From Candidatus Saccharimonadota bacterium (GTDB lineage Bacteria > Patescibacteriota > Microgenomatia > UBA1406 > GWC2-37-13): a DNA stretch of 32,000 nucleotides. Of this stretch, positions 4,948 through 27,600 are shown piece by piece. Position numbers and translations under genes: made by a program. Each line of letters opens with the position of its first letter. Position 1 is the stretch's first letter. Where the stretch lies: NCBI GenBank assembly GCA_016699265.1, contig CP064967.1, positions 600,001 through 632,000 on the forward strand, written 5' to 3'. The notes under the pieces were generated by a model. It was given only the letters and a program-made list of their open reading frames with translations. It did no database searches and was not told where the DNA came from.

Positions 4948-5019
4948 ATTAATTTGAATTTTGAAGTTTAAATCTTGAATTCAATTTCAAATATTTAGTT
5001 TGAAATTTTTAACATTTGA
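4948..5019. repeat. AT-rich spacer containing a TTGAATTTTGAAgTTTAAAT motif shared with 17176-17200
   Basis: 4951 aatttgaattttgaagtttaaatcttgaa compared with 17176 attttgaattttgaaatttaaaatttgaa. Both lie just upstream (in the minus sense) of a start codon: GT4 and rplE. Confidence 0.5.
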
Positions 5020-6412: not shown

Positions 6413-6841
6413 TTAGTTTTTAAACTTATCTTGATGTGGATGATTGTTATCTTTATAAATAAATAGTCGACCCATTCTCACGTCTCTAAGTTTGTTCTTC
6501 GGCAACATTCCAGATACAGCATGATGTACGACCTCAGTTGGTCTTAATCTCAGCTTGTCACCAAGAACCTGCGATGCTAAACCTCCTGGATATCCAGAGT
6601 AACGAGTATACACCTTGCTTTTAAGTTTGTTACCAGTAACAACTAACTGAGCTGCGTTAATTACCACAACACAGTCTCCGCTATCGATATTTGGTGAGTA
6701 TCCAGCCTTTTGCTTACCTTGGAGTAACGAGGTTATATCAGAGATAACTCTTCCGAGTACTTTACCTTTTATATCGATAAGATGCCATTTTCTTTCGACA
6801 TCCTCCGTTCTACCTGGTTTCGTTGAATGTGTTACTTTCAT
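6413..6841 (-). CDS. rplM: 50S ribosomal protein L13
   Basis: 142 aa; motifs WHLIDIKGKVLGRV, DCVVVINA and YTRYSGYPGG; lies directly upstream of rpsI, the conserved pairing. Confidence 0.93.
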   Translation of the reverse strand: MKVTHSTKPGRTEDVERKWHLIDIKGKVLGRVISDITSLLQGKQKAGYSPNIDSGDCVVVINAAQLVVTGNKLKSKVYTRYSGYPGGLASQVLGDKLRLRPTEVVHHAVSGMLPKNKLRDVRMGRLFIYKDNNHPHQDKFKN

Positions 6842-7338
6842 ACAGTTTTCTTCCGACCTGAGGTCGATCGCCCTTTGGGCGAAGCTTTTAATGTTGCCTT
6901 AACTTCTGGTTTTTTCTTTGGCTTTTCGACCGCCGCTGGTTTTGCGGACACAGTTTTTTGCGCTTCGTTCTTTGTATAGATGACGGGACTTACCCATGAA
7001 ATCTGAGCCATAAGCGCTCCATCGCTTGAACGTCGACCAATCTTTGTAATCCTAGTAAAACCACTTGTCCTATCAGCAAAAACACCCTTCACTGCCTTTT
7101 TTAGGTTTACAGGTACATCGTCGACTCCAAAGAAACTTTTAAGCATATTCATCGATGAGTTTGTATCCTTCTTAGCATGTGTCACGAGTCTATCAACAGA
7201 CGCTCTCATATAAAGAGCTTTCTGATGAGTGGTTACAATTTTGCCTTGCATGACAAAGTTCGTTACCAACTTTCTCAACAGCATCGAGTTTGAGTCGACA
7301 CCGTAACCGAATTTTCTCTTGGACACTCTATGATTCAT
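6838..7338 (-). CDS. rplQ: 50S ribosomal protein L17 with a Lys/Pro-rich C-terminal extension
   Basis: 166 aa; N-terminus MNHRVSKRKFGYGVDSNSMLLRKLVTNFVMQGKIVTT matches L17; follows rpoA. The tail contains the double-hairpin repeat listed separately. Confidence 0.9.
   Translation of the reverse strand: MNHRVSKRKFGYGVDSNSMLLRKLVTNFVMQGKIVTTHQKALYMRASVDRLVTHAKKDTNSSMNMLKSFFGVDDVPVNLKKAVKGVFADRTSGFTRITKIGRRSSDGALMAQISWVSPVIYTKNEAQKTVSAKPAAVEKPKKKPEVKATLKASPKGRSTSGRKKTV
6855..6881. repeat. double hairpin GACC-tga-GGTC / CGCCC-ttt-GGGCG inside the 3' end of rplQ (encodes SPKGRSTSG)
   Basis: Read directly. The 15-mer gacctgaggtcgatc at 6855-6869 is identical to 18250-18264. Confidence 0.7.
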
Positions 7339-8301: not shown

Positions 8302-8333
8302 GTCGAGTTTGACTCGACGCCCTTAGATCGGGC
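8302..8333. repeat. double hairpin in the rpsD-rpoA spacer (GTCGAG-tttga-CTCGAC followed by GCCC-ttagatc-GGGC)
   Basis: Read directly: a perfect 6-bp stem followed by a 4-bp GC stem. Same two-hairpin layout as the elements at 6855, 18250, 24326 and 24936. Confidence 0.55.
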
Positions 8334-9374: not shown

Positions 9375-9419
9375 ATTCCCTATTTAGTCGGGAATCAATG
9401 GATCCCCGCTTCCGCGAGG
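9375..9419. repeat. GC-rich double hairpin in the rpsM-rpsK spacer (ATTCCC-N9-GGGAAT plus CCCCGC-ttcc-GCGAGG)
   Basis: Read directly. The second hairpin has 5 of 6 pairs. It produces the spurious peptide MDPRFREDD in the plus-strand ORF 9302..9568. Confidence 0.5.
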
Positions 9420-9861: not shown

Positions 9862-9953
9862 GATTTAATTCGTGATTTTTAGTTTGTAATTTTTATTAAA
9901 TATTAAATTTTTAGTTTTAAATAGAACTTATGAATTAAGAAATATAAATTATA

Positions 9954-11066: not shown

Positions 11067-12197
11067 TTATGAGAAGTAAACAGTGTCGTACACTTCATCA
11101 AGTTTATCCTGAAACTCTTCTTTGGAAAAATTATTTTTGACTAAGAAGTCTGCAAATGCAATAGTTGGTCCCATATTTGTTCCGAAAAGTTCATTAATGT
11201 CTCTCTTCTCACCTCCATGTCCTGGCCTATCTTGAGTTCTGGAACCAAGCCGAGAATAACGTATATTCTTTTCTGCGAATAATGCCATTATGTAAATGTC
11301 GGTATTCTTAAGTTCTAATGTAAGGTATTCATATTCTTTCCAAGATCTCATTCCATCGATCACAACGATATTATTTTTTTTAAGATCCTTCTTTATGCTG
11401 TCTAGATTTAACTTTGCCATTGCTTCCATTCCATGGGTTCTGCGCAATTCTTCACGTACAATCTTATGATATTCCTCTTTCTGTGCATGATATCTTTTTT
11501 GAACCTCATCAGTTACCACTTTACCAAAATGTATAACCGGAACTTTTCGAGACTTAAAGTGAGCAGCTGCTTCAGACTTACCAGACCCTGGTAGACCGAC
11601 GATGGCGATTATCGCCTTTTTGTGCTGTTGCCATGCGCTCAATTTATTCTCAATAAGCTGTTTTCCTAAACTCTTAAGAATTTCTTGATTTACCTCCTCA
11701 ACAGTTTGAGTACCATCTATGTCGGCAAGTTTTCCTTTCTTTCGGTAGTAATCTAAAACTGGTACCGTTAACTTTTTGAATGACTCAATTCTTTTTTTGA
11801 GCGCTTGTATGGTGTTATCTATTCGATCATCATCTTTACGATACGCAAGTCTCCATAGGGCGTCTTTATCGGGAATATCGACATAGATTACCTTATCAAC
11901 GTGATTGATAAATTTCTTTGCCTGAGCAAGTGTTCGAGGAAACCCATCGAGAATATATCCGTTTGCGTATTCTTTACGAGATAGGTAGGAGTTCACGATC
12001 TCAATCGTTTTGTCATCAGGAATAAGAATTCCGGCATTCATCACGGTCTTGATATATCTTCCAAGCTGCGTCTTCTCCTTCGCAATCTTACGGAAGATGT
12101 GACCGGTTGAAAGGTATGGAAGTCCGAGTTGCTTGACTAGTAGATTACCTTGAGTGGATTTTCCAGCACCCTGAATACCCATCAATACTAATTTCAT
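11067..12197 (-). CDS. adk: adenylate kinase fused to a second P-loop nucleotide-kinase-like domain (UPF0200 / dephospho-CoA-kinase-like)
   Basis: A single uninterrupted 376-aa ORF. Residues 1 to about 185 are short-LID Adk (GIQGAGKSTQ, GYILDGFPRT). Residues from about 193 carry a second Walker A (IVGLPGSGKSE) plus VIDGMRSWKEYEY and KRDINELFGTNMGPTIAFADFLVKNN. There is no Met or stop in the linker. Confidence 0.85.
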   Translation of the reverse strand: MKLVLMGIQGAGKSTQGNLLVKQLGLPYLSTGHIFRKIAKEKTQLGRYIKTVMNAGILIPDDKTIEIVNSYLSRKEYANGYILDGFPRTLAQAKKFINHVDKVIYVDIPDKDALWRLAYRKDDDRIDNTIQALKKRIESFKKLTVPVLDYYRKKGKLADIDGTQTVEEVNQEILKSLGKQLIENKLSAWQQHKKAIIAIVGLPGSGKSEAAAHFKSRKVPVIHFGKVVTDEVQKRYHAQKEEYHKIVREELRRTHGMEAMAKLNLDSIKKDLKKNNIVVIDGMRSWKEYEYLTLELKNTDIYIMALFAEKNIRYSRLGSRTQDRPGHGGEKRDINELFGTNMGPTIAFADFLVKNNFSKEEFQDKLDEVYDTVYFS

Positions 12198-12300: not shown

Positions 12301-12471
12301 ATCAAGCTTCTTTTTTTCCTTATGGGAAGCTCGTTTACGACATGCTCGACAGTATTTGTTCAGCTTTAATGGTTCGGTTGTATTTACTTTGTTTTTTTGT
12401 GTGGTGTAGTTCTGTGAACCACATACTTCACAAACTAATCCAACCAAAACTCTTGATCCTTTTCGTGCCAT
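12298..12471 (-). CDS. rpmG: 50S ribosomal protein L33 (Zn-binding form)
   Basis: Not in the ORF track (57 aa). My translation: MARKGSRVLVGLVCEVCGSQNYTTQKNKVNTTEPLKLNKYCRACRKRASHKEKKKLD*. It has CxxC...CxxC and the KNxxxxxxxLxLxKYC pattern of L33. The plus-strand track ORF 12294..12509 is its antisense. Confidence 0.85.
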   Translation of the reverse strand: MARKGSRVLVGLVCEVCGSQNYTTQKNKVNTTEPLKLNKYCRACRKRASHKEKKKLD

Positions 12472-12562
12472 ATATCTTTAATTTAAAATTTTTAATTTGT
12501 AATTTGTAATCAATTTTTAATTTTTAATTTCTAAATAAAAATTTAAAACTATAAATTAAAAA

Positions 12563-13831
12563 TTAACGTGCGTATCGATCGTAATTTTTCATGACCATCT
12601 GTGACTCAACCGTCTTGAAGGTTTCCAAAATTACTGACACAACTATTAAAATCCCTGTTCCTCCGATCACCAAACTAGTTATCCCAGTTATTGATGAAAG
12701 GATTGCAGGCAAGATAGCTATTATACCTAAAAATAATGCTCCAACACTAGTGATTTTATAAATTACCCCAGATAGGTAGTTGCTCGTGGCTGATCCGGGT
12801 CTAATTCCTGGAATAAAACCCCCGGCTTTTTGAATTTCTTCTGCAATTTTTTGAGGGTTAAACACAACCAAAGTATAGAAAAATGTAAACCCAACTACTA
12901 AGAAAAAATAAACGAGATTATATACGGCTCCTGCTGGATTAAATAGTTGGGCTAGGCCAAGTGCTGCTGACGCTACCGTTTTGTTACTTACCTGCCCTAG
13001 AAAATTTCCCAAAAGTTGAGGAAGCAACACGAATGAAACAGCAAAGATTATTGGAATAACACCGGCCTGATTAAGCTTTAAAGGTAGGAAGTTAGTTGCA
13101 GACTGGTACATTTTATTGCCTTTTACGCGCTTAGCATAATATACCGGAATTTTTCGTATCGCTTCGTTTACAAATACGACTCCTGCAATAACGAGTAACG
13201 AGAGACTAAGGAAAATAACTAGATTTAAAGCCGTCTCAGGAGTTACGGTACCTAATACTTGTTGGAATATAACCGGTGCACGTCCCACTATACCGGCGAA
13301 AATAAGAAGAGATATGCCCTGCCCTAAACCGTACTCTGTCAGGAGTTCGCCAAACCATACGAGAATAAATGTTCCGGCCACAAGTGTGAAAATGAATGAG
13401 AAAACCACAGGGCTGATTGAAATAATGTTCTGATTTCTTAGTAAAAATAAATACCCACCGCCTGAACAATGGTTAATGGAACAGTAAGCAATCGAGATAT
13501 TGATTTATCTCAAACCTACCGTATTCACCCCTTTCGCAAGCTGTTCGAAACGAGGTACTACCACAGTCAATAACTGAAAATAATCGATGCGTTGATATAA
13601 GGGTTTAGTCCAAAGCCATTACCGAAAAATTAACCAGTGTTCCTCCAGAGAAAATATCAAGAAGAGATAGAAATTGATTTGGCTGAATAGTGCCTTAAGT
13701 TTGATGAGATCGACTCGAAGGAACTGGTAAAGCAAAGACTCTAAAACAAAAAAATGAATAGCGTGAAGTAAGTTTTCTTTTTAGTTCAGGGTCCTTTACA
13801 AGGAGCTTAGTTTATCGGTTATTTGACGCAT
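12563..13831 (-). pseudogene. secY: preprotein translocase SecY; 3' two-thirds intact, 5' third (about 13447-13831) broken by multiple frameshifts
   Basis: The intact 281-aa ORF 12563..13408 is the SecY C-terminal part (GGFIPGIRPG...). Upstream, pieces in shifting frames read MRQITDKLSSL / KDPELKKK / [47 protein letters not shown] / PLTIVQAVGIYF / LLRNQNIISISPVVFS. The first break from the 3' side lies in a T-run at about 13447-13451. Confidence 0.8.
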
Positions 13832-14269
13832 GAGTTTCAACAGTTCCGCCTGCTTTTTCTATTACCGCTTTGCAGATTGAGTAATTGGTAATTTTACTGT
13901 CAGTTTTTGCTGGAGAGTACCCTTGCCAACAATCTTAATAATGCATCCGTATCGCTTTTGGTAATTATTTTTGTCTTCAAGCAACCCAGCAACTGTTACA
14001 ACATCATTATCTCGCAAACTCTCTAACTTTCTACAGCAACTGGGAACACAACCGCTCTGTGGGAGTTGTTTTTACCTTTTCCACGAAGTAAAGGATATTT
14101 TTTGACCAATCGACCCTGACCTCCTCAAAATGAAGTGGCGTATCGACTCTCGCTTTCTGGTGTCTTGTGATTCCTCTGGTAGATTTTGCTCCTTTCCACT
14201 ACCATAACCACGACCCAATCGTTTTGATTTCTTTCTTCCGATGCTGGTTAGATTTGATAGAAATGCCAT
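13812..14269 (-). pseudogene. rplO: 50S ribosomal protein L15, reading frame broken several times
   Basis: The N-terminus MAFLSNLTSIGRKKSKRLGRGYGSGK is L15-like and then drifts out of frame. The C-terminal piece ...IEKAGGTVETHASNNR* is recovered in another frame. Boundaries are approximate. Confidence 0.7.
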
Positions 14270-14328
14270 ATATATTACTTAGTCCCTTTAACTTTCTTGA
14301 CATCCGCAGCCTTGACTGGAGGATTCGC

Positions 14329-14856
14329 TTATGTGGACATAACTTCCTCGGTCTTTTCAACTACTGTTTTTGTTTCTCCTGCCGTTATTCGAGGTTTCAG
14401 TTTTTTCAACGCCTCAATTATTGCATAGGTATTCGCTATTTGATTTCTAGAACGGATTATTTTTCCTGAAGATTCTCTACCCAGCAAGTTTAGTATTGCG
14501 CGCAACGCTTCCCACCTTAAGACCGGTTCCAAGTGGAGCGGGCTTTAGCAATACCCCTTTGCTGCCTTGTATTTGAGAAGTATCATGTGGAATTGAGGAC
14601 TTAACAAAGGAACAACAATAATGTTTTTGCACTGCGTGATAGCCTTTTAATTGCTGCGGAACCTCAGCAGAACTTCCAAGACCAACTCCCACCTTTCCTT
14701 TTTATTACCAATCACAACAAGTGAGGAGAAAGTGACTTTGTTACCTTCCAGTTGTCTTTTTAACCACTCTTCGGATAAGCAGGACTCTCTCCTCAAACTC
14801 TTTATCCTTTGGCCCTCGTATCTCCTATTATTTGGTGTTCTTGTATTATTAAACAT
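14329..14856 (-). pseudogene. rpsE: 30S ribosomal protein S5, reading frame broken several times
   Basis: Fragments across three track ORFs: MFNNTRTPNNRRYEG...GNKVTFSSLVVIGNKK, GVGLGSSAEVPQ...KPAPLGTGL and KIIRSRNQIANTYAIIEALKKLK. Confidence 0.75.
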
Positions 14857-14863
14857 ATTTTTC

Positions 14864-15188
14864 TTAAATTACTACTCCGTTCTCCCTCAAACTTTCTGCA
14901 AATTGTTTCACTCGACCGTGATATAGATATCTACCTCGATCAAACAAAGCTTTCTGCACCTTTAGCCTTTTGAGTTTCTCAGCCAATCTGACTCCAATAG
15001 CCTTTGGGTCTGTTCCTTTAGCTGCTGCGATTGTAACACGCTTCACATCATCTATTGCTTGGCCATACAAAATTTATTAGATCGAAAACGCTTATGCGAG
15101 GTCTTTCCTCAGTGCCTGAAGCTTTGCTCGGACTCTTTTACCTTTCTTTGAATTCTGTTTAATATATATATTAGTTCTTAATTTTCAT
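14864..15188 (-). pseudogene. rplR: 50S ribosomal protein L18, 5' part frameshifted
   Basis: The intact C-terminal 68 aa read YGQAIDDVKRVTIAAAKG...LFDRGRYLYHGRVKQFAESLRENGVVI. The upstream ATG at 15186-15188 gives MKIKN... followed by stops and frame changes. Confidence 0.75.
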
Positions 15189-15204
15189 TTCTTAGTTGTT
15201 AATA

Positions 15205-15746
15205 TTACGCCGCTCCTGCTGCCTTCGCCTTCTTTCCAGGCTTAAGTTTTAGATACCGCCCGCATATCGAATTCCTTTCCTTTGTATGGATCCGGTTTTC
15301 TGTTAACTTAACTAAATATGCTACCTCTCCCGCTAACTGTTTATCGACGCTTGATATAGTGATCAGATTTGTACCTCAACACTAAAGGTAACACCCGGTC
15401 TCGCCTTAAAGACAACTGGATGTGAAACCCAGTTTTTAAAGCTAGATTCTGACCTTCCATCTTAACATTAAATCCAGTTCCAACGATTTCCAACTTTTTT
15501 CCCAAGGTTTTGAACACCTTCAACCGCATTTGCTATCAGACTTCTAAACAACCCGTGTAATGACTTGGTCTTTTATCATCTTTTGTTCGTCCTACTGTGA
15601 GAACACCGTTCTCTTGAATCACTTTAATGGTATTTGGTACCTCAATTTTAAGCTCACCCTTGGTCCTTTTACAAGCACGGAACTACTCTGATATCTACGG
15701 TTACTACTGGTTCTACTTTAATTATTTTTTCTCCAATTTTTGACAT
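15205..15746 (-). pseudogene. rplF: 50S ribosomal protein L6, reading frame broken many times
   Basis: From ATG at 15746: MSKIGEKIIKVEPVVTVDI.. / VKGPKGELKIEVPNTIKVIQENGVLTV / LIANAVEGVQN / ...GKK...EIVGTGFNVKMEGQNLALKTGFH / IRYAGG..LKLKPGKKAKAAGAA*, spread over all three frames. Confidence 0.72.
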
Positions 15747-15770
15747 ATTATTTATAGTGAGTTTATCGAA

Positions 15771-16151
15771 CTACCAAATCTCAAATAATAACTTCCGCCT
15801 AACTTCGACTTTCTTGCCTCAACATTGGTCATCAATCCTCTTGAGGTCGAGATGATCATGTATCCTGTCCCGCTCATAACTGGCTTGATATCGTTTACCG
15901 TTATATACCAACGCCGACCTGGTTTTGATCTAATCGTCACATTGGTAAAGACTGCTTCACCATGCTTGTATCTCAGCACGATATTTATTTCTTTTTACAC
16001 CGACAGTCTCAACACTGTAGTCCTGGATGAATCGAGCGACTTTAATTTTTAAGCACTTGCTCCTTTAGTTTAGAGTGTGGTGAAGAAATTTCTCTCTTTG
16101 GCGAGGTATCCATTTTATTCTGATCACTAAATCAATTATTCCGTTGTTCAT
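15771..16151 (-). pseudogene. rpsH: 30S ribosomal protein S8, reading frame broken several times
   Basis: ATG at 16149-16151. Adding one base at the run at about 16113-16116 gives MNNGIIDLVIRIKNGYLAKEREISSPHSKLKEQVLK. Later pieces read LDFIQDYSVETVG and LRYKHGEAVFTNV...ISTSRGLMTNVEARKSKLGG, and (after one more shift) KLLFEIW* with the stop at 15771-15773. Confidence 0.75.
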
Positions 16152-16154
16152 ATG

Positions 16155-16439
16155 TTAGGTTGCTGAAATCACTTTCTTTGTAACTTTTCCATGGCTTCTG
16201 AATGTTCTGGTCAATGAGAACTCACCCAAACGGTGACCAATCATCGACTCTGAGATTAAAACCTCAATATGTTTACGTCCATTATGAATTGCGATTCTGT
16301 GACCTACAAAATCTGGCGCGATTACAGACTGTCTCGCCCATGTCTTTATCGGAGTTCTCTCTCCTGTATTTTTCTGAGTTGCAATTCTCTTCATTACGTT
16401 CTCGTCGATGTATGGTCCTTTTTTTGATGATCTACTCAT
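16155..16439 (-). CDS. rpsS: 30S ribosomal protein S19, in a non-canonical position
   Basis: 94 aa: MSRSSKKGPYIDENVMKRI...IKTWARQSVIAPDFVGHRIAIHNGRKHIEVLISESMIGHRLGEFSLTRTFRSHG is unmistakably S19. It sits 6 nt after the rpsN stop and 3 nt before the rpsH start. Confidence 0.92.
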   Translation of the reverse strand: MSRSSKKGPYIDENVMKRIATQKNTGERTPIKTWARQSVIAPDFVGHRIAIHNGRKHIEVLISESMIGHRLGEFSLTRTFRSHGKVTKKVISAT

Positions 16440-17170: not shown

Positions 17171-17222
17171 ATCGTTATTTTGAATTTTGAAATTTAAAAT
17201 TTGAAATCAATATAAAATTTAA

Positions 17223-17243
17223 AATGTTTAAAAATTAAACATT
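17223..17243. repeat. perfect 9-bp inverted repeat AATGTTTAA-aaa-TTAAACATT inside the AT-rich rplX-rplE spacer
   Basis: Read directly from 17223-17243. It lies inside a 110-nt spacer of nearly pure A/T (17171-17280). Confidence 0.6.
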
Positions 17244-17280
17244 AAAAATTGAATAAAAATTAAAAACTTCAAATTAAAAA

Positions 17281-17589
17281 TTACTTAAATGTCGCTTTAC
17301 ACTTTTTACAACTTCTAACCTTCTTACTTTTATCTAATTTAAATCCTACTCTGGTCGTTTTCTCGCATTTGGGACATATCAACATTACGGACGAAGACTG
17401 CACAGCTTTTGGAATATCTATTATCCCACCGTCTGGTAGTTCTTGATTTTTTTTAATATGTCTTTTAATTAAATTTATTCCTTGGATTAAGATCTTCTCC
17501 TGTTTTGGATAGACACGATCAATGACCCCATCCTTTCCTTTATCCTTACCAGCCATTATCCTAACTTTATCGCCTTTTCGTAGTTTCAT
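17281..17589 (-). CDS. rplX: 50S ribosomal protein L24 with a C-terminal CxxC...CxxC zinc-ribbon-like motif
   Basis: 102 aa; KOW region KLRKGDKVRIMAGKDKGKDGVI; C-terminal CPKCEKTTRVGF...SCKKCKATF. Confidence 0.9.
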   Translation of the reverse strand: MKLRKGDKVRIMAGKDKGKDGVIDRVYPKQEKILIQGINLIKRHIKKNQELPDGGIIDIPKAVQSSSVMLICPKCEKTTRVGFKLDKSKKVRSCKKCKATFK

Positions 17590-18241: not shown

Positions 18242-18463
18242 TTATTTTTGACCTGAGGTCGATCCTCTATTGGAGGATTTTTGATTCAAAACTGTTAAAA
18301 TAACTGCTATCTGTTTTCGTTTTTTCATGTTTGTATTTGTGTCTTTTTGAGGAGCCATTTTGCTCTCAAGTTCTGATTTAATAATTTCTTTACGCAACTG
18401 AGCTAGCTCTTTATGAAGCTCTATTTCCGTCTTTTGTGTAATTTTTGTAACTTCTTTTTTCAT
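18242..18463 (-). CDS. rpmC: 50S ribosomal protein L29 with a C-terminal extension
   Basis: MKKEVTKITQKTEIELHKELAQLRKEIIKSELE... is an L29-type helix. I prefer the start at 18463 (73 aa) to the track start at 18505, which overlaps rplP. The tail ...SSNRGSTSGQK is encoded by a double-hairpin repeat. Confidence 0.85.
   Translation of the reverse strand: MKKEVTKITQKTEIELHKELAQLRKEIIKSELESKMAPQKDTNTNMKKRKQIAVILTVLNQKSSNRGSTSGQK
18250..18278. repeat. double hairpin GACC-tga-GGTC / ATCCTC-tattg-GAGGAT inside the 3' end of rpmC (encodes SSNRGSTSGQ)
   Basis: Read directly. It shares the exact 15-mer gacctgaggtcgatc with the rplQ copy, while the second stem differs in sequence but still pairs. Confidence 0.7.
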
Positions 18464-19546: not shown

Positions 19547-19582
19547 GTATTAAATTAAAAATTCAAAGTGAAAAATTCAAAA

Positions 19583-20068
19583 TTATTTTTCTGCTTTTGG
19601 TTCTTTGGTTGCATTTTTAACTTTTAACTTTGTACTTTTAACTTCTTTTAGCTCCGTCTTTTTTACTTCAGTCTCCACGGGCTCTGTCTCCGACTTTATA
19701 GACTTTACGGACTTTATTGACTTGTCAGTATTATCTCCTGTGGTTAAAACCAACTTAATATGAGAATATTCATGCCTAAAAGGCTTGGCCATTCCTTTCG
19801 AGCCAGCTCTAAATCTCTTAAGTCGAAGTCCTTCCTCAATTGCGACAGACTTAAATTGTAACAAACCTGAATCAATATTCATAGTGTTCTTAGCATTGGA
19901 AAGGGCTGAACTAATTGCTTTTCTTAAGAAAGTTGCGCCCTTTTTTTGTGTATACATAAGTGTATGAACAGCCTGTACTGGGCTCTGCTTCTTCACGTTA
20001 CTCACTAAAAATCTCAATTTTTTTGGTGAAATCTTAACGTTTTTTATATAGACCTTAAAATCACTCAT
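19583..20068 (-). CDS. rplV: 50S ribosomal protein L22 with a long Lys/Ser/Glu-rich C-terminal tail
   Basis: 161 aa; the core ISPKKLRFLVSNVKKQSPVQAVHTL...RFRAGSKGMAKPFRHEYSHIKLVL is L22; the tail is partly encoded by a 9-nt tandem repeat. Confidence 0.9.
   Translation of the reverse strand: MSDFKVYIKNVKISPKKLRFLVSNVKKQSPVQAVHTLMYTQKKGATFLRKAISSALSNAKNTMNIDSGLLQFKSVAIEEGLRLKRFRAGSKGMAKPFRHEYSHIKLVLTTGDNTDKSIKSVKSIKSETEPVETEVKKTELKEVKSTKLKVKNATKEPKAEK
19692..19727. repeat. four tandem 9-nt units (gactttata/gactttacg/gactttatt/gacttgtca) inside the rplV tail
   Basis: Read directly. On the coding strand it gives the periodic peptide DKSIKSVKSIKSE. The same gactttat motif array occurs in the non-coding adk-rpmG spacer (12263-12300). 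Confidence 0.7.
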
Positions 20069-21871: not shown

Positions 21872-22528
21872 TTATGAGTTTGAAACAATACTAATTAATG
21901 CAGTTCTCGCTCCGGGAATCAGACCTTTCACAATTATTTGGTCATCGGAAACTCCCATCACCATTAATCCCTTTACACTGACTCGGTCATTTCCCATTCT
22001 CCCAGCCATTCTTTTTCCTTTATCAACTCGTCCAGGAGTAGTGGTCTGTCCGATTGATCCAGGAGCTCTCCATCTATCTGACTGACCATGAGTCTTCGGA
22101 CCTCCGGCAAAACCATGCCTTTTAACTACGCCCTGAAATCCTTTACCTTTTGAGATTCCGGTAACAGTCACAAGCTCTCCTTCTTTAAAGATTGCGTTTG
22201 GCTTGATCTGATCTCCTACAACTATTTTGAATTCTCCGAGAGTTAAGGTTTTTTTACCATTTTCATCAGCGATTGAAGCGTCTTTCAATTTGTTCAGCTT
22301 GATTTCTCTAAAAAAACGAAGCGGGGTCTCTATCCCCGCCTTTTTAAGTTCTCCGACCTGTGGTTTTTTGACGTTTTTACCACGACCGAAGCCTAGCTTA
22401 ATTGAGGTATCTGTCAGACCAATGCAGTAGCATGAAGCGGACTTAATGGTTGTTGTTGGAACACGAACACCATCAGAGGTGAATTGTTGAGATTGGTGAG
22501 CTTTCTCGCCAAGAATATATCCTGACAT
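21872..22528 (-). CDS. rplC: 50S ribosomal protein L3
   Basis: 218 aa; VTGISKGKGFQGVVKRHGFAGGPKTHGQSDRWRAPGSIG...PGRVDKGKRMAGRMG. Confidence 0.93.
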   Translation of the reverse strand: MSGYILGEKAHQSQQFTSDGVRVPTTTIKSASCYCIGLTDTSIKLGFGRGKNVKKPQVGELKKAGIETPLRFFREIKLNKLKDASIADENGKKTLTLGEFKIVVGDQIKPNAIFKEGELVTVTGISKGKGFQGVVKRHGFAGGPKTHGQSDRWRAPGSIGQTTTPGRVDKGKRMAGRMGNDRVSVKGLMVMGVSDDQIIVKGLIPGARTALISIVSNS

Positions 22529-22546
22529 AATTGTGCTTTAGTTAAT

Positions 22547-22570
22547 AAAAAAAGACCCCAGACTGAGGCC
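22547..22570 (-). terminator. intrinsic-terminator-like hairpin plus U7, 18 nt upstream of the rplC start codon
   Basis: The minus-strand RNA reads GGCCUC-AGUCU-GGGGUC-UUUUUUU: a 6-bp stem (4 GC plus 2 GU), a 5-nt loop and seven U. The plus strand shows aaaaaaa-gacccc-agact-gaggcc at 22547-22570. Confidence 0.5.
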
Positions 22571-22640
22571 CATCCCGTGGAACCAATCTGTGGAGTATTA
22601 CTGAATACCAGTCCTGACACTACGAATAGTCATTAACGTA

Positions 22641-22669
22641 ATTATATAGCACGCTCGGATGTAATTCAA
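22641..22669 (-). promoter_or_regulatory. sigma70-like promoter between rpsJ and rplC (TTGAAT-17 nt-TATAAT)
   Basis: The minus strand reads TTGAAT (22664-22669), a 17-nt spacer, then TATAAT (22641-22646). It begins 31 nt after the rpsJ stop. Confidence 0.5.
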
Positions 22670-22699
22670 CTCTAAGCGATCAAGAATGAGTATACATCT

Positions 22700-23008
22700 T
22701 CACCTCAACTCACCTCTTCCTACGCCGGCTGGAAGTTCAAGATGCATGAGAGAATCAATGGTTTGATTAGTGGGACCTTCGATATCAAGAATTCGCTTAT
22801 GAGTCTGCATCCCAAAGTGTTCACGAGCATCCTTATCAATAAATGGCGACTTATTGACCACGAATACCTCCTTCTTCGTTGGAAGAGGTATCGGACCAAT
22901 AATCGAGGCACCCGTCTTGATAGCGGTGTCCACTATCTTCTGACAGGTGTCATCGATTAATCGATGATCATAAGACTTTAGTTTGATACGAATACGTCCT
23001 TTGGGCAT
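22700..23008 (-). CDS. rpsJ: 30S ribosomal protein S10
   Basis: 102 aa; [60 protein letters not shown]. Confidence 0.94.
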
Positions 23009-23086: not shown

Positions 23087-24274
23087 TTACTTGGTGACTT
23101 TAGTTACGACTCCAGCGCCGACTGTGTGGCCACCTTCGCGAATAGCGAACTTAAGACCATCTTCCATAGCGACTGGGTAGATCAGCTTTGCTGAGATCTT
23201 GATGCTGTCTCCAGGCATAACCATCTCTACTCCTTCTGGTAGGGTGACTTCTCCCGTTACATCAGTTGTTCTGATGTAGAACTGAGGTCGATAACCCTTA
23301 AAGAATGGGCTGTGTCGTCCACCTTCTTCTTTTGTAAGAACGTAGATCTCAGCCTCAAACTCAGTGTGAGGAGTAACTGTTCCTGGTTTTGCGATGACCT
23401 GCCCTCTTTGGACGTCGGTCTTCTCAATACCTCTAAGAAGTAAGCCTGTGTTGTCACCTGCTCGTGCCTCATCAAGAGACTTTCTGAACATCTCGATTCC
23501 GGTTACAACAGTCTTCTTTCCACTCTTGGAAAGTCCGACAATCTCCACCTCTTCATTGACCTTCAAAACACCTCTCTCTACACGTCCGGTTACGACTGTT
23601 CCGCGACCCATGATGGTAAAGACGTCTTCGACAGGCATTAAGAATGGCTTATCGATGTCTCGTACTGGATCAGGAACATAGTCATCCACTGCCTGCATAA
23701 GGTCTTCAATGGCCTTGGTTGCATCAGCATCTCCTTCAAGAGCTTTAACAGATGATCCCTTAATAACAGGTACTTCATCACCTGGATATCCGTACTTCTT
23801 CAAAAGGTCTCGGACTTCCATCTCGACGAGTTCGAGAATTTCTTTATCCTGAACCATGTCGCACTTATTTAAGTAAACGACAATTGCAGGAACGTTTACC
23901 TGTTTTGCAAGAAGAATATGCTCTCGTGTCTGAGGCATTGGACCGTCAGGAGCAGATACAACTAAAATTGCACCGTCCATCTGAGCGGCACCTGTGATCA
24001 TGTTCTTAATATAATCAGCATGACCTGGAGCATCTATGTGTGCATAGTGACGCTTTAAGGTCTCATACTCAGAGTGATGAATGTTAATTGTAACTCCACG
24101 AGCTTTTTCCTCTGGAGCTTTATCAATCTCTTCATACTTCATCGCCTTTGCAAGACCTTTTTTCGAAAGGACGAAGTGAATTGCTGATGTGGTTGTGGTC
24201 TTACCATGATCAACGTGACCAATAGTACCAATGTTCAAATGAGGTTTGTTTCTTTGAAAAACACCTTCTGCCAT
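23087..24274 (-). CDS. tuf: translation elongation factor Tu
   Basis: 395 aa; G1 [10 protein letters not shown]3 DAPGH, G4 NKCD, plus conserved domains II and III. Confidence 0.97.
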
Positions 24275-24325
24275 ATTAGTTAAATAGTATAAAAAATAAT
24301 AATAAAACCGACCAATGTCGAAAAA

Positions 24326-24372
24326 TCACCCAGAGGGTGATCGCCTTTTAGGCGAAATCTCTGCAAAAGCAG
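24326..24372. repeat. three consecutive small hairpins (TCACCC-aga-GGGTGA, TCGCC-tttta-GGCGA, CTGC-aaaa-GCAG) in the tuf/helicase divergent spacer
   Basis: Read directly. The reverse complement of 24326-24355 (tcgcctaaaaggcgatcaccctctgggtga) aligns to helicase-internal 24936-24965 (tcgcccaaagggcgatccccctctggggga) at about 25 of 30 positions. Confidence 0.65.
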
Positions 24373-24434
24373 TTACCTTCTATAATACTTCCCAGCTACT
24401 CAAAAATCAAGTGGTATTTGAGTCTTTTTTCATC

Positions 24435-24443
24435 TGATACAAT
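24435..24443 (+). promoter_or_regulatory. extended -10 element TGaTACAAT ending 6 nt before the helicase ATG
   Basis: TG at 24435-24436, TACAAT at 24438-24443, ATG at 24450. No Shine-Dalgarno sequence in the 6-nt gap. Confidence 0.4.
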
Positions 24444-24449
24444 GACACC

Positions 24450-27423
24450 ATGCTTAACGCCGATCAGAAAAAAGCGGTTCAAAACATTAAGGGACCACTA
24501 CTTATAATCGCCGGTGCAGGCACGGGGAAAACTACAACTATAATAGAGAAGATAGCCTTTCTAATTGAGAAGAAGAAAGTAAAACCGGAAAATATTCTTG
24601 GACTAACCTTCACCGAGAAAGCCTCAAACGAAATGGAGGAACGTATCGATCAACGACTCCCCTTTGGTTACTTTCAGCTAAATATATCTACGTTTCACTC
24701 ATTTTGCGATCAGGTACTTCGAAGTGAAAGTTCTCACATCGGAATTTCGCCTCTATACAGACTACTTTCAGAAGCAGAGACCGTTATGTTTCTGCGAGAG
24801 AATCTTTTTTTATTCAAACTTAAGTACTTTCGTCCTTTAGGAAATCCCAATAAATTTCTCGATGCTCTTCTTCAACATTTCTCGAGACTCCGAGATGAGG
24901 ATATTTCGCCAGCTCAGTACCTAGCATGGGCAAAGTCGCCCAAAGGGCGATCCCCCTCTGGGGGAAAGAATAAGGAAAAAATGACAAAAGAAGAGCGTGA
25001 AAAAAATCTTGAGCTTGCAACTGCCTTTGACACTTTTCAGACAATCAAACAAAGAGAAAATGTCTTCGACTATGCCGATCTTATTTACTATACGCTAGAG
25101 CTTTTTCGAAAGCGGCCCCACGTACTCAAACGCTTTCAAAAACAGTATGAACATATTTTGGTAGACGAGTTCCAGGATACAAATATCGCACAGTATTCGC
25201 TAATTAAACTTCTCGCAACGCCAAACAAGAAACCTAACTTAACGGTGGTCGGCGACGACTCACAGGCTATCTATAAATTTCGTGGCGCCTCTGTTTCGAA
25301 CATTCTTGCATTCATGAAGGACTATAAAGGCGCAAAGCAGATAACACTGAGAAATAATTACGCTCAACTCAGACTCATTCTTGATAGAGCTTATAAGCTC
25401 ATCAAACATAACGACCTGAGACACTCTCGAGGCAAAGCTTCGAATCTCTAAAGAATTGATTGCGGTATGAAAAGTATCAATGAAATACGGAATACGTTAT
25501 ACGATATTACGCACCTTGGTCTCCGATCGTGCGAGGATGAGGCTGACCATAGGTTACAAAGAGATCAAAGCTCTGAATAAAAATATAAGTACTGGATATT
25601 GGCAATTCTTGTTCAGCAAATAATCACGCTGAGGTAAAGTTACACGAGACTGTCTCAGAGAAAGGTGCATTCCATTATCAATTTTTGGGTCCACGGGAGC
25701 TTGTTCAAACAACCAGAGGTCAAGGGACCTTACTGCCTATCTCAAATGTTCTGGCAAATTTAGACGACTCAGCTCTCCTTTATAGAGTGCTTCCGAGATG
25801 GAGTTGTTCTGACATAAATAGTAAGGACATCTCTACTTCTCCTAACCTTTGGCCGACGCTCGTCCCTTTACTTTGTTTGAGGCAATCGAGATAATTGTAA
25901 CCCTGAATCAAGCGAAATAATAACTAACATAAAGTATCTGCCAAAGCATTAGATCGACACAAAAACAATCCATATATATATACATTATTCGCAGATAGCA
26001 CCTGAATCGGTAAAAGGATACTGCGGCAATTCTTACTACTTTTAGGAGACTCTGGATATCTTCAAAATCGCCAATACAAACTGAAAAAGATGAACGAGTC
26101 GCACTCAACATCTCTAAGTTATTTCGATAAGCTGAAAAGTTACGAAATCACTCATGAAGACGCAAACTATATATGCAGTGGACTTTATCAAAATGAGTAT
26201 GGAGCTGGGAGAATCAAATCGCCGTTGATCTAGATAAGGAACTTTACGATGTGCTGTCAAAATTCCTTCACCATTCATTCTGCAAAGGGTCTTGAGTTTC
26301 CAGTCGTGTTCCTAATTAATCTAACGCAGAGACCGTTTTCAACTCGTGAAAGAAAAGAGACAATTCCTGTTCCTATGGGAGCTGATAAAGGAAACAAGCT
26401 TCCTATCTGGAAGCGACTTCCATCTGCAGGGGAAGAGAGAAGGCTTTTCTAGTGTGGGAATTGACAAGAGCCATTGCGAGAGACTTTACTTCACGGCAGC
26501 TCAAGCAACATAACGGTGAGGGAGAAGCGGCTACGCAAAGTTTTCACTCATTTATCTGGTGAGTCTCGTATGAAAACAATCCTATGCAAAATTTTCGAGA
26601 CCCAAAAGGATGAAAAATCAACAAGTATTTTTGATATAAATAAGTCGCCTAGCAAGGGATCAGCTCCTTCTGGGGCGAAAAATTAGACCAACAAACCATG
26701 CTCTATTCAACGAGATTGACACTTATCAAATGTGTCCGCTCAAACATAAATATTCAATATGTATTAAAATTCAATAATCTGCTGAGCTAAGCGTCTCTTA
26801 AACCTTGGTCTACATTACATTACAATTTTATACAGAATATATGAACAACAAAACATTAAAAAAGGGAATGTCTTCTAGAACTCTTGATGAGTCTTGATTC
26901 CGTGGGCTTTATATCTAAGTATTAGCGAACGCAATTCAAAAGAAGCGGGAAAGAAAATGCTATTAAATTACTACAAACTTTTCTACACTAAAATGCTTAA
27001 TATTCTTGATCTGGAGAAAGCATTCAAGATTAAGGTTGGCCCAGGTGACGATATCTTCATTAATTGAAAAATAGATCGACTCTGACAGCACATCTAAAAT
27101 GGTATTGAGATAGTAGATTATGCAAGACTGGCAAGACACATAAAGAAAAACTAAAGAACAGTCTACAACTTTCGATATATTTAGGACAGCAGCGACAGAC
27201 AAAGGGCACAGAAACAAAAACCAAGCGATGCCTTTAACCTTCTACTACCTTCAGACAACAAAAAATTACCGTTGACCAAACCGGAAGAAACTGTACAAAA
27301 AGCCAAGGAAAATACTTGAGGCAGATGATACATGGAAGCTGAGAACTTGAAGCCTAAAAAAGGTCCTGCTTGTAACTTCGCCAGTTCAAGATGATCCGCG
27401 CTTCCGGTAGTATCAAGACTTGA
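24450..27423 (+). pseudogene. UvrD/PcrA-family (SF1) helicase fused to a C-terminal PD-(D/E)XK Cas4/AddB-type nuclease; intact for the first 305 or so codons, then densely frameshifted
   Basis: The intact N-terminus has Walker A AGAGTGKTT, motif II DEFQDT and motif III VVGDDSQAIYKFRGA. After about 25365 the family motifs are found only in shifting frames: TLEAKLRISKELIAV, SLFEAIE, TIHSAKGLEFPVVFLINL, EERRLF, (Q)MCPLK.KY, DDIFINGKIDRLD....IEIVDYKTGKT and a terminal CNF..QFKMI. The end coordinate is approximate. Confidence 0.75.
24936..24965. repeat. double hairpin TCGCCC-aaa-GGGCGA / TCCCCC-tct-GGGGGA embedded in frame in the helicase (encodes SPKGRSPSGG)
   Basis: Read directly. Its first 17 nt are identical to the reverse complement of the rplQ-tail element at 6865-6881. 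Confidence 0.7.
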
Positions 27424-27588
27424 GCCGATCAGCAAGCTTCCGGCAGTGATTGGAGCTGAGTCAGATTCCAGGGTAGCAATTGGATGAAATTCAACGACAA
27501 GAACTATTCGAGATTGTCTGAAGAATTGCTCAAGAACATCGCTCAAAATAAGACGAGCGATTCATTAAGTTTTAAACAAAGATTAGGA

Positions 27589-27594
27589 TATAAT
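27589..27594 (+). promoter_or_regulatory. TATAAT box 6 nt upstream of an in-frame ATG (27601) of the GT2 synthase gene
   Basis: TATAAT at 27589-27594, gap atcttc, ATG at 27601. This is the same spacing seen at the helicase and glyA starts. Confidence 0.35.
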
Positions 27595-27600
27595 ATCTTC

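Follow-up and report, generated by a model that had tools for sequence, protein, structure and literature searches.

The window that was analysed in this study is a 32-kb stretch (39.5% G+C; contig CP064967.1, positions 600,001 to 632,000) from a bacterium of the Microgenomates group, and it carries a ribosomal-protein cluster on its minus strand. We found that it contains five copies of a 30-nt module composed of two tandem hairpins, with two of the copies placed within a single helicase gene. The modules form a family that is largely confined to Patescibacteria (the candidate phyla radiation, CPR) and is apparently undescribed; full-text literature searches returned no description of the module, nor of palindromic repeats in CPR. 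In the reading that we regard as rather probable, the module is a non-autonomous palindromic mini-insertion element, which inserts as a unit, is translated when it lies in genes and is structurally constrained. A preliminary description of the window had already proposed a miniature palindromic element that tolerates in-frame insertion, similar to the Rickettsia palindromic elements (RPEs), and this proposal is supported by the dispersal of the module, its presence and absence among relatives, stem covariation and open host frames. If it is true, the module would be smaller than any in-frame insertion element so far known from bacteria and an overlooked source of protein-length variation, including lineage-specific tails of ribosomal proteins. 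The CPR is a huge, mostly uncultivated branch of organisms with minimal genomes, and the module recurs in many of its classes.

Architecture of the module and its copies in the window

Each of the two 15-nt hairpins has the form TC-N-CCC-(3 nt)-GGG-N'-GA, or a near variant of it, with a 6-bp G+C-rich stem, a 3-nt loop and the ends TC...GA, and the junction between the hairpins reads GATC. The flank consensus is TTG / (C)AA; these flanks are inverted, not direct, and bring the module to 36 nt. Solo 15-nt units are rare, the double module being the unit, and an unbiased scan revealed the further stem variants TC-N-GCC...GGC-N'-GA and CC...GG. The window copies were predicted to fold into two hairpins, with energies of -11 to -20 kcal/mol as RNA and -6 to -12 kcal/mol as DNA. 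Their loops, AAA/AAAA and then TCT/TCA on the sense strand, define a lineage-specific subfamily, and a density of five copies in 32 kb is unusually high.

The four copies that were called clear in the preliminary description are all present where it had placed them, and their exact 30-nt boundaries are listed in Table 1. A fifth, near 26645-26690, had been taken for a degraded copy. It does belong to the family but is not degraded: the window is of low quality there, and in 9/9 other same-species assemblies with the site the copy is perfect, reads TCGCCCAAAGGGCGA followed by TCGCCCTCTGGGCGA and is translated in frame as SPKGRSPSGR. Exact counts in the window bore out the shared words that had been reported, since the 15-mer GACCTGAGGTCGATC occurs exactly twice (in the rplQ and rpmC copies), as does the 17-mer TCGCCCAAAGGGCGATC, which has five matches at no more than 3 mismatches compared with 0.01 expected. 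The unit pattern TCNCCCNNNGGGNGA gave five window matches at no more than 1 mismatch, compared with 0.33 expected, and none of the 100 shuffles reached five. Moreover, a sequence-blind scan for adjacent 15-nt hairpin pairs with at least 15 G+C returned exactly four copies, while the mean of 100 Markov shuffles was 0.05 (maximum 1).

Four of the five copies lie in coding sequence. In the three clear genic copies, every 15-nt unit opens with a Ser codon, and their translations are as the preliminary description had given them when it claimed a common peptide: SPKGRSTSGRKKTV and SSNRGSTSGQK, each followed by the stop codon, in rplQ and rpmC, and SPKGRSPSGGK in the helicase. The L17 domain of the rplQ product stops at residue 116 of 166, and copy 1 lies beyond it. 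The rpmC copy is the most diverged one; its host had been read as a gene of 87 residues, which must be corrected to 73 according to the gene calls in other assemblies. The helicase has 986 residues in nine other same-species assemblies, whereas its frame in the window is broken after codon 333 by assembly errors. Its closest named homologues assign the organism to the Microgenomates group.

Table 1. Copies of the double-hairpin module in the window and the genes that host them
Feature	Position	Strand	Description
Copy 1, in rplQ (L17)	6853..6882	-	TCGCCCAAAGGGCGA then TCGACCTCAGGTCGG; translated SPKGRSTSGR; 5 codons before the stop, in a lineage-specific C-terminal tail
Copy 2, in rpmC (L29)	18248..18277	-	TCCTCCAATAGAGGA then TCGACCTCAGGTCAA; translated SSNRGSTSGQ; last 10 of 12 codons
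Copy 3, in the spacer from which tuf (minus) and the helicase gene (plus) diverge	24326..24355	-	TCGCCTAAAAGGCGA then TCACCCTCTGGGTGA; 52 nt upstream of the tuf start
Copy 4, helicase site 1 (UvrD-type helicase, residues 163-172)	24936..24965	+	TCGCCCAAAGGGCGA then TCCCCCTCTGGGGGA; in frame, SPKGRSPSGG
Copy 5, helicase site 2 (residue ~728 of 986)	26645..26678	+	Window reads tcgcctagcaagggatcagctccttctggggcga, garbled by assembly errors
rplQ (ribosomal protein L17), host of copy 1	6838..7338	-	Pfam PF01196, E 2e-19
rpmC (L29, 73 residues), host of copy 2	18242..18463	-	Pfam PF00831; 73 residues in the gene calls of other assemblies
UvrD/PcrA-type helicase with PD-(D/E)xK nuclease domain, host of copies 4 and 5	24450..27410 (end approximate)	+	Pfam PF00580

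Inside rpsS, at 16222-16236, there is a single unit-like sequence, TCACCCAAACGGTGA, with one stem mismatch, which is either a half-element on its own or a match by chance.

Distribution across genomes

The pattern TCNCCCNNNGGGNGATCNCCCNNNGGGNGA, which has 20 specified bases, was scanned over one genome per bacterial and archaeal species, and it matched at least 120 loci, of which about 90% are from Patescibacteria of many classes; the family figures below rest on the matches listed. Further copies beyond chance, on which the preliminary description had let its proposal depend, exist in number. Based on the record titles, 84 of the 120 matches listed belong to named Patescibacteria lineages (Parcubacteria, Saccharibacteria, Nomura-, Azam-, Kuenen-, Komeili-, Berkel-, Doudna-, Staskawicz- and Moranibacteria), 17 carry the label 'uncultured Gammaproteobacteria', 8 come from unnamed bacteria and 11 from other taxa. 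The label 'uncultured Gammaproteobacteria' is a co-assembly label that is not verified, as an exact-protein look-up gave no taxon names. Ten of the listed loci, among them the chance-like matches, exceed 60% G+C, and these comprise 9/11 of the 'other taxa', one CPR-named record and one unnamed bacterium; most of the non-CPR loci among them have atypical loops or are tandem 15-nt repeats. The host molecules are bacterial chromosomal contigs of up to 0.9 Mb, and the 2.9 million viral contigs of IMG/VR contain no match to the module; a phage origin was rejected on this ground.

In metagenomes, the pattern of the window subfamily was found at 21 loci, which represent about 17 contexts that have no relation to the window and share the same sequence over at least 26 nt, and the variant TCGCCCAAAGGGCGA followed by TCGACCTCTGGTCGA recurs in at least six metagenome contexts. 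A covariance model, R1, which was built from 112 copies that all lie in other genomes, recovered three of the window copies: helicase site 1 at 38.4 bits (E 6e-15), the spacer copy at 26 bits (E 1e-9) and the rplQ copy at 17.3 bits (E 8e-6). Nothing else in the window scored below E = 1, and the diverged rpmC copy was missed. Such a scan had been suggested in the preliminary description. The phylum-wide range could not have been visible from the window alone, and the family is not specific to the window genome.

Local tandem arrays of two or three copies with a repeated spacer of 7-270 nt were observed at L046 (418-484), L062 (4180-4246), L084 (5730-5803), L088 (5880-5998), L043 (914-1026) and L148 (941-1266), which suggests that local duplication occurs besides dispersal in some CPR genomes.

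Presence and absence among relatives

Orthologue comparison, which had also been suggested, showed that close relatives lack the individual copies at all five window sites. Helicase site 1 is filled in the window and in relative L145 (93.7% amino acid identity) and empty in P0024/L131 (90%) and L165 (69%); L145 and L131 differ there by a clean 30 nt between ...CAAAG and AAAAT..., with no duplication. In the spacer between tuf and the helicase gene, L165 is otherwise conserved and the element is missing within a 43-nt gap. These two filled and empty sites look like a clean 30-nt insertion into an A-rich run without target duplication. Helicase site 2 is also element-free in L165. Among 22 homologues of rplQ, the KGRSTSG segment was found only in that of the window species (P0001) and in P0002, which is 80% identical in amino acid sequence. 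Most L29 homologues end 7-10 residues earlier than the rpmC product of the window, and only P0144 shares a decayed copy. Additionally, 9-11 kb of the orthologous operon in a related species contained no copies.

The L165 contig (JGI 3300038404, Ga0393997_0000538) is peculiar in other respects. Its EF-Tu is identical to that of the window and its rpmC 3' region is 100% identical over 130 nt, while its helicase is only 69% identical, which suggests that a recombination event may have had its breakpoint at the tuf start. Two additional open reading frames (ORFs) of 349 and 89 codons, with no Pfam match, are inserted between rpsJ and rplC of this contig. In the window, an extra small hairpin, CGAC-CAAT-GTCG, at 24308-24321 adjoins the tuf-upstream copy and is missing together with it in L165. 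Both a promoter-like -35 hexamer and a minus-strand terminator-like call overlap with this hairpin.

Stem pairing and structural constraint

The covariation of the stems, which had been claimed from the window copies, holds across the family. Among the listed copies, the free stem positions N3:N13 are complementary in 111/117 and N18:N28 in 110/117, and the pairs UA, AU, CG and GC are all used. The letters in the stem of one hairpin do not depend on those in the other, being the same in 40 of the 117 copies. If the module is instead folded in the register of a single long hairpin, the free positions are unpaired in 44-74 of 112 sequences; one long cruciform or hairpin was therefore rejected as the conserved structure, although fully symmetric copies can fold in this way. 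The loops follow a fixed order, with TNC as loop 1 in 101 and GNA as loop 2 in 98 of the 117 listed loci with no more than 60% G+C, and the reversed order was seen once among the 117 copies.

Orthologous copies also change by compensatory pairs. The rplQ copy of P0002/L132 differs by a compensatory C-G to T-A exchange in hairpin 1, and the helicase site 1 copy of L145 by one in hairpin 2, which combines a nonsynonymous with a synonymous substitution. These 2 of 30 nt, which together make up one compensatory pair, are the only differences between the window and L145 within that element, while the flanks differ at 20% of their positions; at third codon positions, the difference is 46-49% in the flanks compared with 1/10 in the element. 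This copy evolves several-fold more slowly than the synonymous sites on either side of it. The older rplQ and rpmC copies are decaying. The hairpins are constrained after insertion.

The asymmetric subfamily is oriented within genes in the sense direction in 14 cases and in the antisense direction in two. Taken with the constant chirality of the loops, this bias suggests a strand-specific process. In the main family, the 3' hairpin on each strand is a C(GNA)G triloop. The C(GNA)G triloop is an exceptionally stable DNA mini-hairpin motif, and single-stranded DNA would therefore be the more attractive substrate. An account based on restriction or methylation around GATC was rejected, as this word occurs in the window at the expected frequency (140 compared with 141.5), with no over-representation.

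Copies within genes and their translation

Of the listed copies, 59/119 lie in ORFs, which cover about 86% of the same loci. This depletion fits purifying selection against harmful insertions. The frames of the listed genic copies are split 20/14/23, and these copies are found at all relative positions along the ORFs. Hosts that were confirmed using Pfam include UvrA, RecG (in the wedge domain), UvrD, two class I aminoacyl-tRNA synthetases, RelA/SpoT (in the synthetase domain), a family A DNA polymerase and GatA. We defined deep genic copies as those with a minimum of 70 open codons in each flank. Of the 22 such copies that lie in frames 0 and 1, none has a stop in the host frame, compared with 34-39% of the element-by-frame combinations for two of the frames (P ~4e-5 under indifference), and the 30 nt must therefore be read by ribosomes and not removed. 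It follows for annotators that 10-residue segments of the types SPxGRSPxGR and LPxGDLPxGD are element-derived.

Genomic context and the search for partners

The intergenic copies occupy tandem, divergent and convergent spacers in ordinary proportions (35/10/7 among the listed copies). The preliminary description had offered, as an alternative, an RNA processing or stability signal that is reused at gene ends, and had suggested a test for enrichment at 3' ends. The wider sample gave no support to the connection with gene ends, since genic copies extend over the whole ORF length and convergent or tandem spacers are not preferred over divergent ones; the structure is constrained after insertion, and the module may therefore have some function. 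A terminator or 3'-end signal was likewise rejected, given the lack of positional bias and the location of half of the copies inside genes. A terminator scan of 24200-25100 did not flag the elements and found no U-tract or T-run after the hairpins, and the Rfam 15 covariance models had no match at any window element at E<=1.

The neighbours of the module are ordinary housekeeping genes. In 148 ORFs that flank the elements, no transposase or nuclease family was enriched, and none was among the top 25 Pfam families, which led us to reject an adjacent mobilising enzyme. The 349-codon ORFs in L165 were considered as a partner; the two such ORFs are mutually unrelated and without a Pfam match.

An association with tRNA genes was observed. 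While 4.3% of all positions lie within 150 nt of a tRNA gene, 21% of the copies do, and when only non-coding positions are considered, the proportions are 39% for the copies and 21% for the positions, that is, an approximately 2-fold enrichment. Moreover, 7/116 listed CPR copies (L027, L038, L043, L060, L072, L077 and L121) split the T-arm core motif GGTTCRAnnCC exactly in the loop, compared with 0.37 expected, and many copies lie in tRNA gene clusters. The element might have a preference for TT|CAA-like loops; alternatively, the loci with a split T-arm could be pseudo-tRNAs. Introns of tRNA genes or tRNA-borne elements were rejected because deletion of the element restored no convincing tRNAs and the Rfam tRNA model found only neighbouring intact tRNAs.

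Interpretation and alternative explanations

For the mini-insertion element that we favour, the following course of events can be proposed. The module arrives at a site as a unit, as is evident from identical sequences of at least 26 nt in unrelated contexts and from the empty sites in close relatives. Genic copies would then be read through and would add ten residues to a permissive loop, linker or tail, for which the evidence is indirect: the module is exactly 10 codons long and most of its variants are open in all frames, and it should therefore be translated when it lands in a permissive place. Copies that damage a gene would presumably be removed by selection. Both hairpins stay constrained after insertion, and something should therefore read them. 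Finally, a trans-acting hairpin-recognising activity that is encoded elsewhere might copy or insert the module on single-stranded DNA; we infer such an activity because of the C(GNA)G-type DNA triloops on each strand, the chiral loop order and the orientation bias of the asymmetric subfamily in genes.

A more far-reaching proposal, which we put forward only tentatively, is that Patescibacteria share a conserved and so far undescribed nucleic-acid transaction specific to hairpins, for which the double hairpin serves as the cis-site. The candidates for it would be a single-strand DNA cut-and-paste or copy-in system, the enzyme of which is encoded elsewhere in the minimal genomes, or a conserved host protein that uses the structure. 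If true, such a transaction would explain the phylum-wide conservation at a low copy number, the 5'-TNC / 3'-GNA loop chirality and the sense-strand bias, as well as the T-loop-like insertions and the slow evolution of genic copies. Its by-product would be a continual remodelling of loops and tails in essential CPR proteins, including the ribosomal ones. The module pattern or the covariance model could serve as a searchable handle for finding the hairpin-recognising activity.

Several observations weigh against a mini-insertion element. No mobilising enzyme was identified, and no strain-level polymorphism was seen within the window species, the nine other same-species assemblies with the sites having identical copies. 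At two sites, element-free orthologues hold an unrelated K/P-rich segment of exactly equal length: AKPSVKTAKP stands opposite SPKGRSTSGR at the rplQ tail (L135, 1230-1290), and PEPEPKKKSA opposite SPKGRSPSGR at helicase site 2 (L165, ~2080-2130). The copy number appears to be low in most CPR genomes, with about 9 extra copies found in 700 kb beyond the seeds and few decayed relics, which is odd for a selfish repeat and suits a selected signal at least as well. The slow evolution of one genic copy, together with the phylum-wide sequence conservation, suggests a function beyond parasitism. Additionally, CPR specificity is strong but not absolute, with 17 'uncultured Gammaproteobacteria' labels unconfirmed.

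Part of this evidence would suit a cis-acting structured signal of the host, which would act at the RNA level (in stability, processing or pausing) or at that of DNA. A conserved CPR protein would bind or process this signal, selection would keep it wherever it occurs, and its spread would be secondary. The nucleotide-level conservation of the helicase site 1 copy, in which the sole change is compensatory, the stem covariation and the sense bias of the asymmetric subfamily would be expected of such a signal, as would an architecture and loop chirality that are constant across distant CPR classes at a low copy number with few decayed copies; the absence of an adjacent transposase and the enrichment near tRNA genes, even at non-coding positions, point the same way. 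However, the positions are not conserved, as close relatives do not have the individual copies, and copies lie in three frames within catalytic-domain regions of unrelated housekeeping proteins. The even spread along ORFs and the spacer proportions carry no 3'-end or terminator signature, and there is no T-run, terminator flag or Rfam match. We consider a host signal less probable than the mini-insertion element and yet a serious rival to it. An origin in place, in which template switching or slippage would generate the hairpins locally within low-complexity linkers rich in K/P/S/G and within A-rich spacers and no element would move, would account for the equal-length segments at the rplQ tail and helicase site 2 and for P0003, where another small palindrome, AAGGC-AAA-GCCTT, occupies the corresponding position. 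It is quite unlikely given that identical sequences of 26-30 nt occur in about 17 unrelated contexts, both coding and non-coding, and that one consensus is common to at least 100 loci of different classes; moreover, helicase site 1 and the spacer show clean 30-nt length differences, and single units are rare compared with the double module.

That the peptide is what is conserved (a KGRSxSG or SPxGR motif), with the hairpins as a by-product of codon choice, was suggested by the SPKGRSxSGR frame, which is used by three window copies and by 7/12 genic metagenome copies. We find this highly improbable, as half of the copies are intergenic and the use of three frames, with unrelated peptides such as SPFGRSPEGR, LPTGDLPKGD and SLREISRRET, effectively refutes it; in addition, an A+T-rich genome retains CCC and GGG, which are rare codons, and the stems covary at the nucleotide level, including through a nonsynonymous and synonymous pair. 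Chance similarity or an assembly or adapter artefact might be suspected since the window comes from an error-prone assembly, but it has next to no probability left and can be regarded as refuted: shuffle controls exclude chance, copies are identical in at least 10 independent assemblies (JGI, ENA, NCBI and Logan), the host frames are kept open, and the restriction to CPR argues against a library origin.

Comparison with known systems

The mini-insertion element that we prefer is closest in behaviour to the RPEs and to the double-hairpin elements (DHEs) and GC clusters of mitochondria, and it is a member of neither. According to the account of Ogata et al. 2000 in a review of MITEs (miniature transposable elements with inverted repeats; PMC10969869), RPEs are palindromic non-autonomous repeats that lie in frame in Rickettsia housekeeping genes and are translated; they measure ~100-150 bp, form about ten families in one genus, each with one conserved peptide, and are described there as spreading by an unknown mechanism. 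The module resembles them in being palindromic, non-autonomous and translated in frame within unrelated housekeeping genes of a reduced-genome bacterium, with non-coding copies in addition. Judged by these descriptions, it is set apart by its length of 30 nt, the use of three frames, its two minimal hairpins and its superphylum-wide range of hosts in Patescibacteria. DHEs and GC clusters (PMC7218506, PMC4478555) are also short G+C-rich hairpin modules, DHEs having two adjacent hairpins; they occur in A+T-rich compact genomes, are optional between relatives, lie in spacers as well as in frame in genes and encode no transposase. Unlike the module, they are organellar, measure ~26-80 bp and have another consensus, and GC clusters show target preferences and duplications.

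Repetitive extragenic palindromic sequences (REPs) and their inverted pairs (REPINs), which are mobilised by REP-associated tyrosine transposases (RAYTs; PMC3733652, PMC3116915), share with the module that they are dispersed, G+C-rich, often paired and non-autonomous palindromes, 20-40 nt in length in the case of REPs. REPs are recognised as single-stranded DNA hairpins, are extragenic by definition, carry a GTAG or CGTC tag and number hundreds per genome, co-occurring with a RAYT gene that is flanked by REPs (PMC3733652, PMC3116915). Whereas a REPIN places two inverted REPs in one long hairpin, the module consists of two independent tandem hairpins; it is not extragenic and has no GTAG or CGTC, ending in TC...GA, and membership was rejected. 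Regarding RAYT, there was no transposase among the top 25 Pfam families of the 148 flanking ORFs, whole genomes lying outside that search. The module is not a MITE either, since the two filled and empty comparisons revealed no target-site duplication and its length is 30 nt compared with about 50-500 bp; no parent insertion sequence was seen in 770 kb of flanking sequence.

The small dispersed repeats (SDRs) of cyanobacteria, a subject of Elhai et al. 2008, are reportedly 20-30 nt long, palindrome-containing and mobile-looking, and are said to lie in spacers and occasionally in genes. They are similar to the module in their tiny size and palindromes and differ from it in phylum and consensus. 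The likeness to HIP1, the 8-mer GCGATCGC that occurs about once per gene and has no hairpin arms (PMC4390886, PMC5861425), is that of a GATC-centred palindrome, and GCGATCGC is present at the hairpin junction of some window copies. Guide arrays of the CRISPR or TIGR type were rejected; the copies are solitary, have no spacers and stand among housekeeping neighbours, while such arrays are tandem repeats with variable spacers beside cas or tas genes, and those of the TIGR type contain box C/D motifs (PMC12045711). One complete Microgenomates genome was reported to be without mobile-element-related genes (PMC7143001). In practice, the module could serve as a marker of CPR contigs in metagenome binning.

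Sequence quality and other features of the window

Compared with other same-species assemblies, the window has 72 gap openings in 17 kb. Dense patches of indels and mismatches, which reach up to ~10% in 500-nt bins, lie at ~13400-16100, 22500-23000 and 25000-27600, and the rest is nearly identical. The patches break secY, rplF/R, rpsE, rplO and the helicase gene into short ORFs and look like unpolished long-read sequence, not pseudogenes. An alternative genetic code was considered for the broken ORFs at 13.4-16.1 kb and rejected; re-reading of TGA restored no genes, and the cause is the dense indels.

The gene order of the ribosomal-protein cluster is unusual. The rpsS gene (S19; Pfam E 3e-32; 16155-16439, minus strand) lies between rpsN (S14) and rpsH (S8) instead of between rplB and rplV, where L2 and L22 have no S19 gene between them, and the same order was found in all related assemblies, which makes it an unusual rearrangement of a very conserved operon. 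The adenylate kinase gene (11067-12197, minus strand) encodes 376 residues, with the ADK domain at residues 5-155 followed by a second, P-loop kinase-like domain at ~196-326. The rpmG gene (L33; 12298-12471, minus strand) is located between secY and adk and is overlapped by a weak PreQ1-riboswitch match (12382-12428; 28.9 bits, E 0.04, below the gathering score), which is probably spurious.

Two other kinds of repeats and hairpins are present. The pairs of G+C-rich hairpins that had been noted in the rpoA-rpsD spacer (8302-8333) and the rpsK-rpsM spacer (9375-9419) exist and are not members of the family; they do not consist of 15-nt units, and R1 misses both even at E<=10. They might serve in processing or regulation. 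Spacers of the ribosomal cluster at 4950-5012, 9866-9921, 12474-12567, 17177-17283 and 19548-19586 contain a second repeat family, which is A+T-rich. Its members resemble AATTTTTAATTTGTAATTT, have arms of up to 57 nt with 82% identity and are found in either orientation. Promoter or UP-element regions, or a further dispersed repeat, could explain them.

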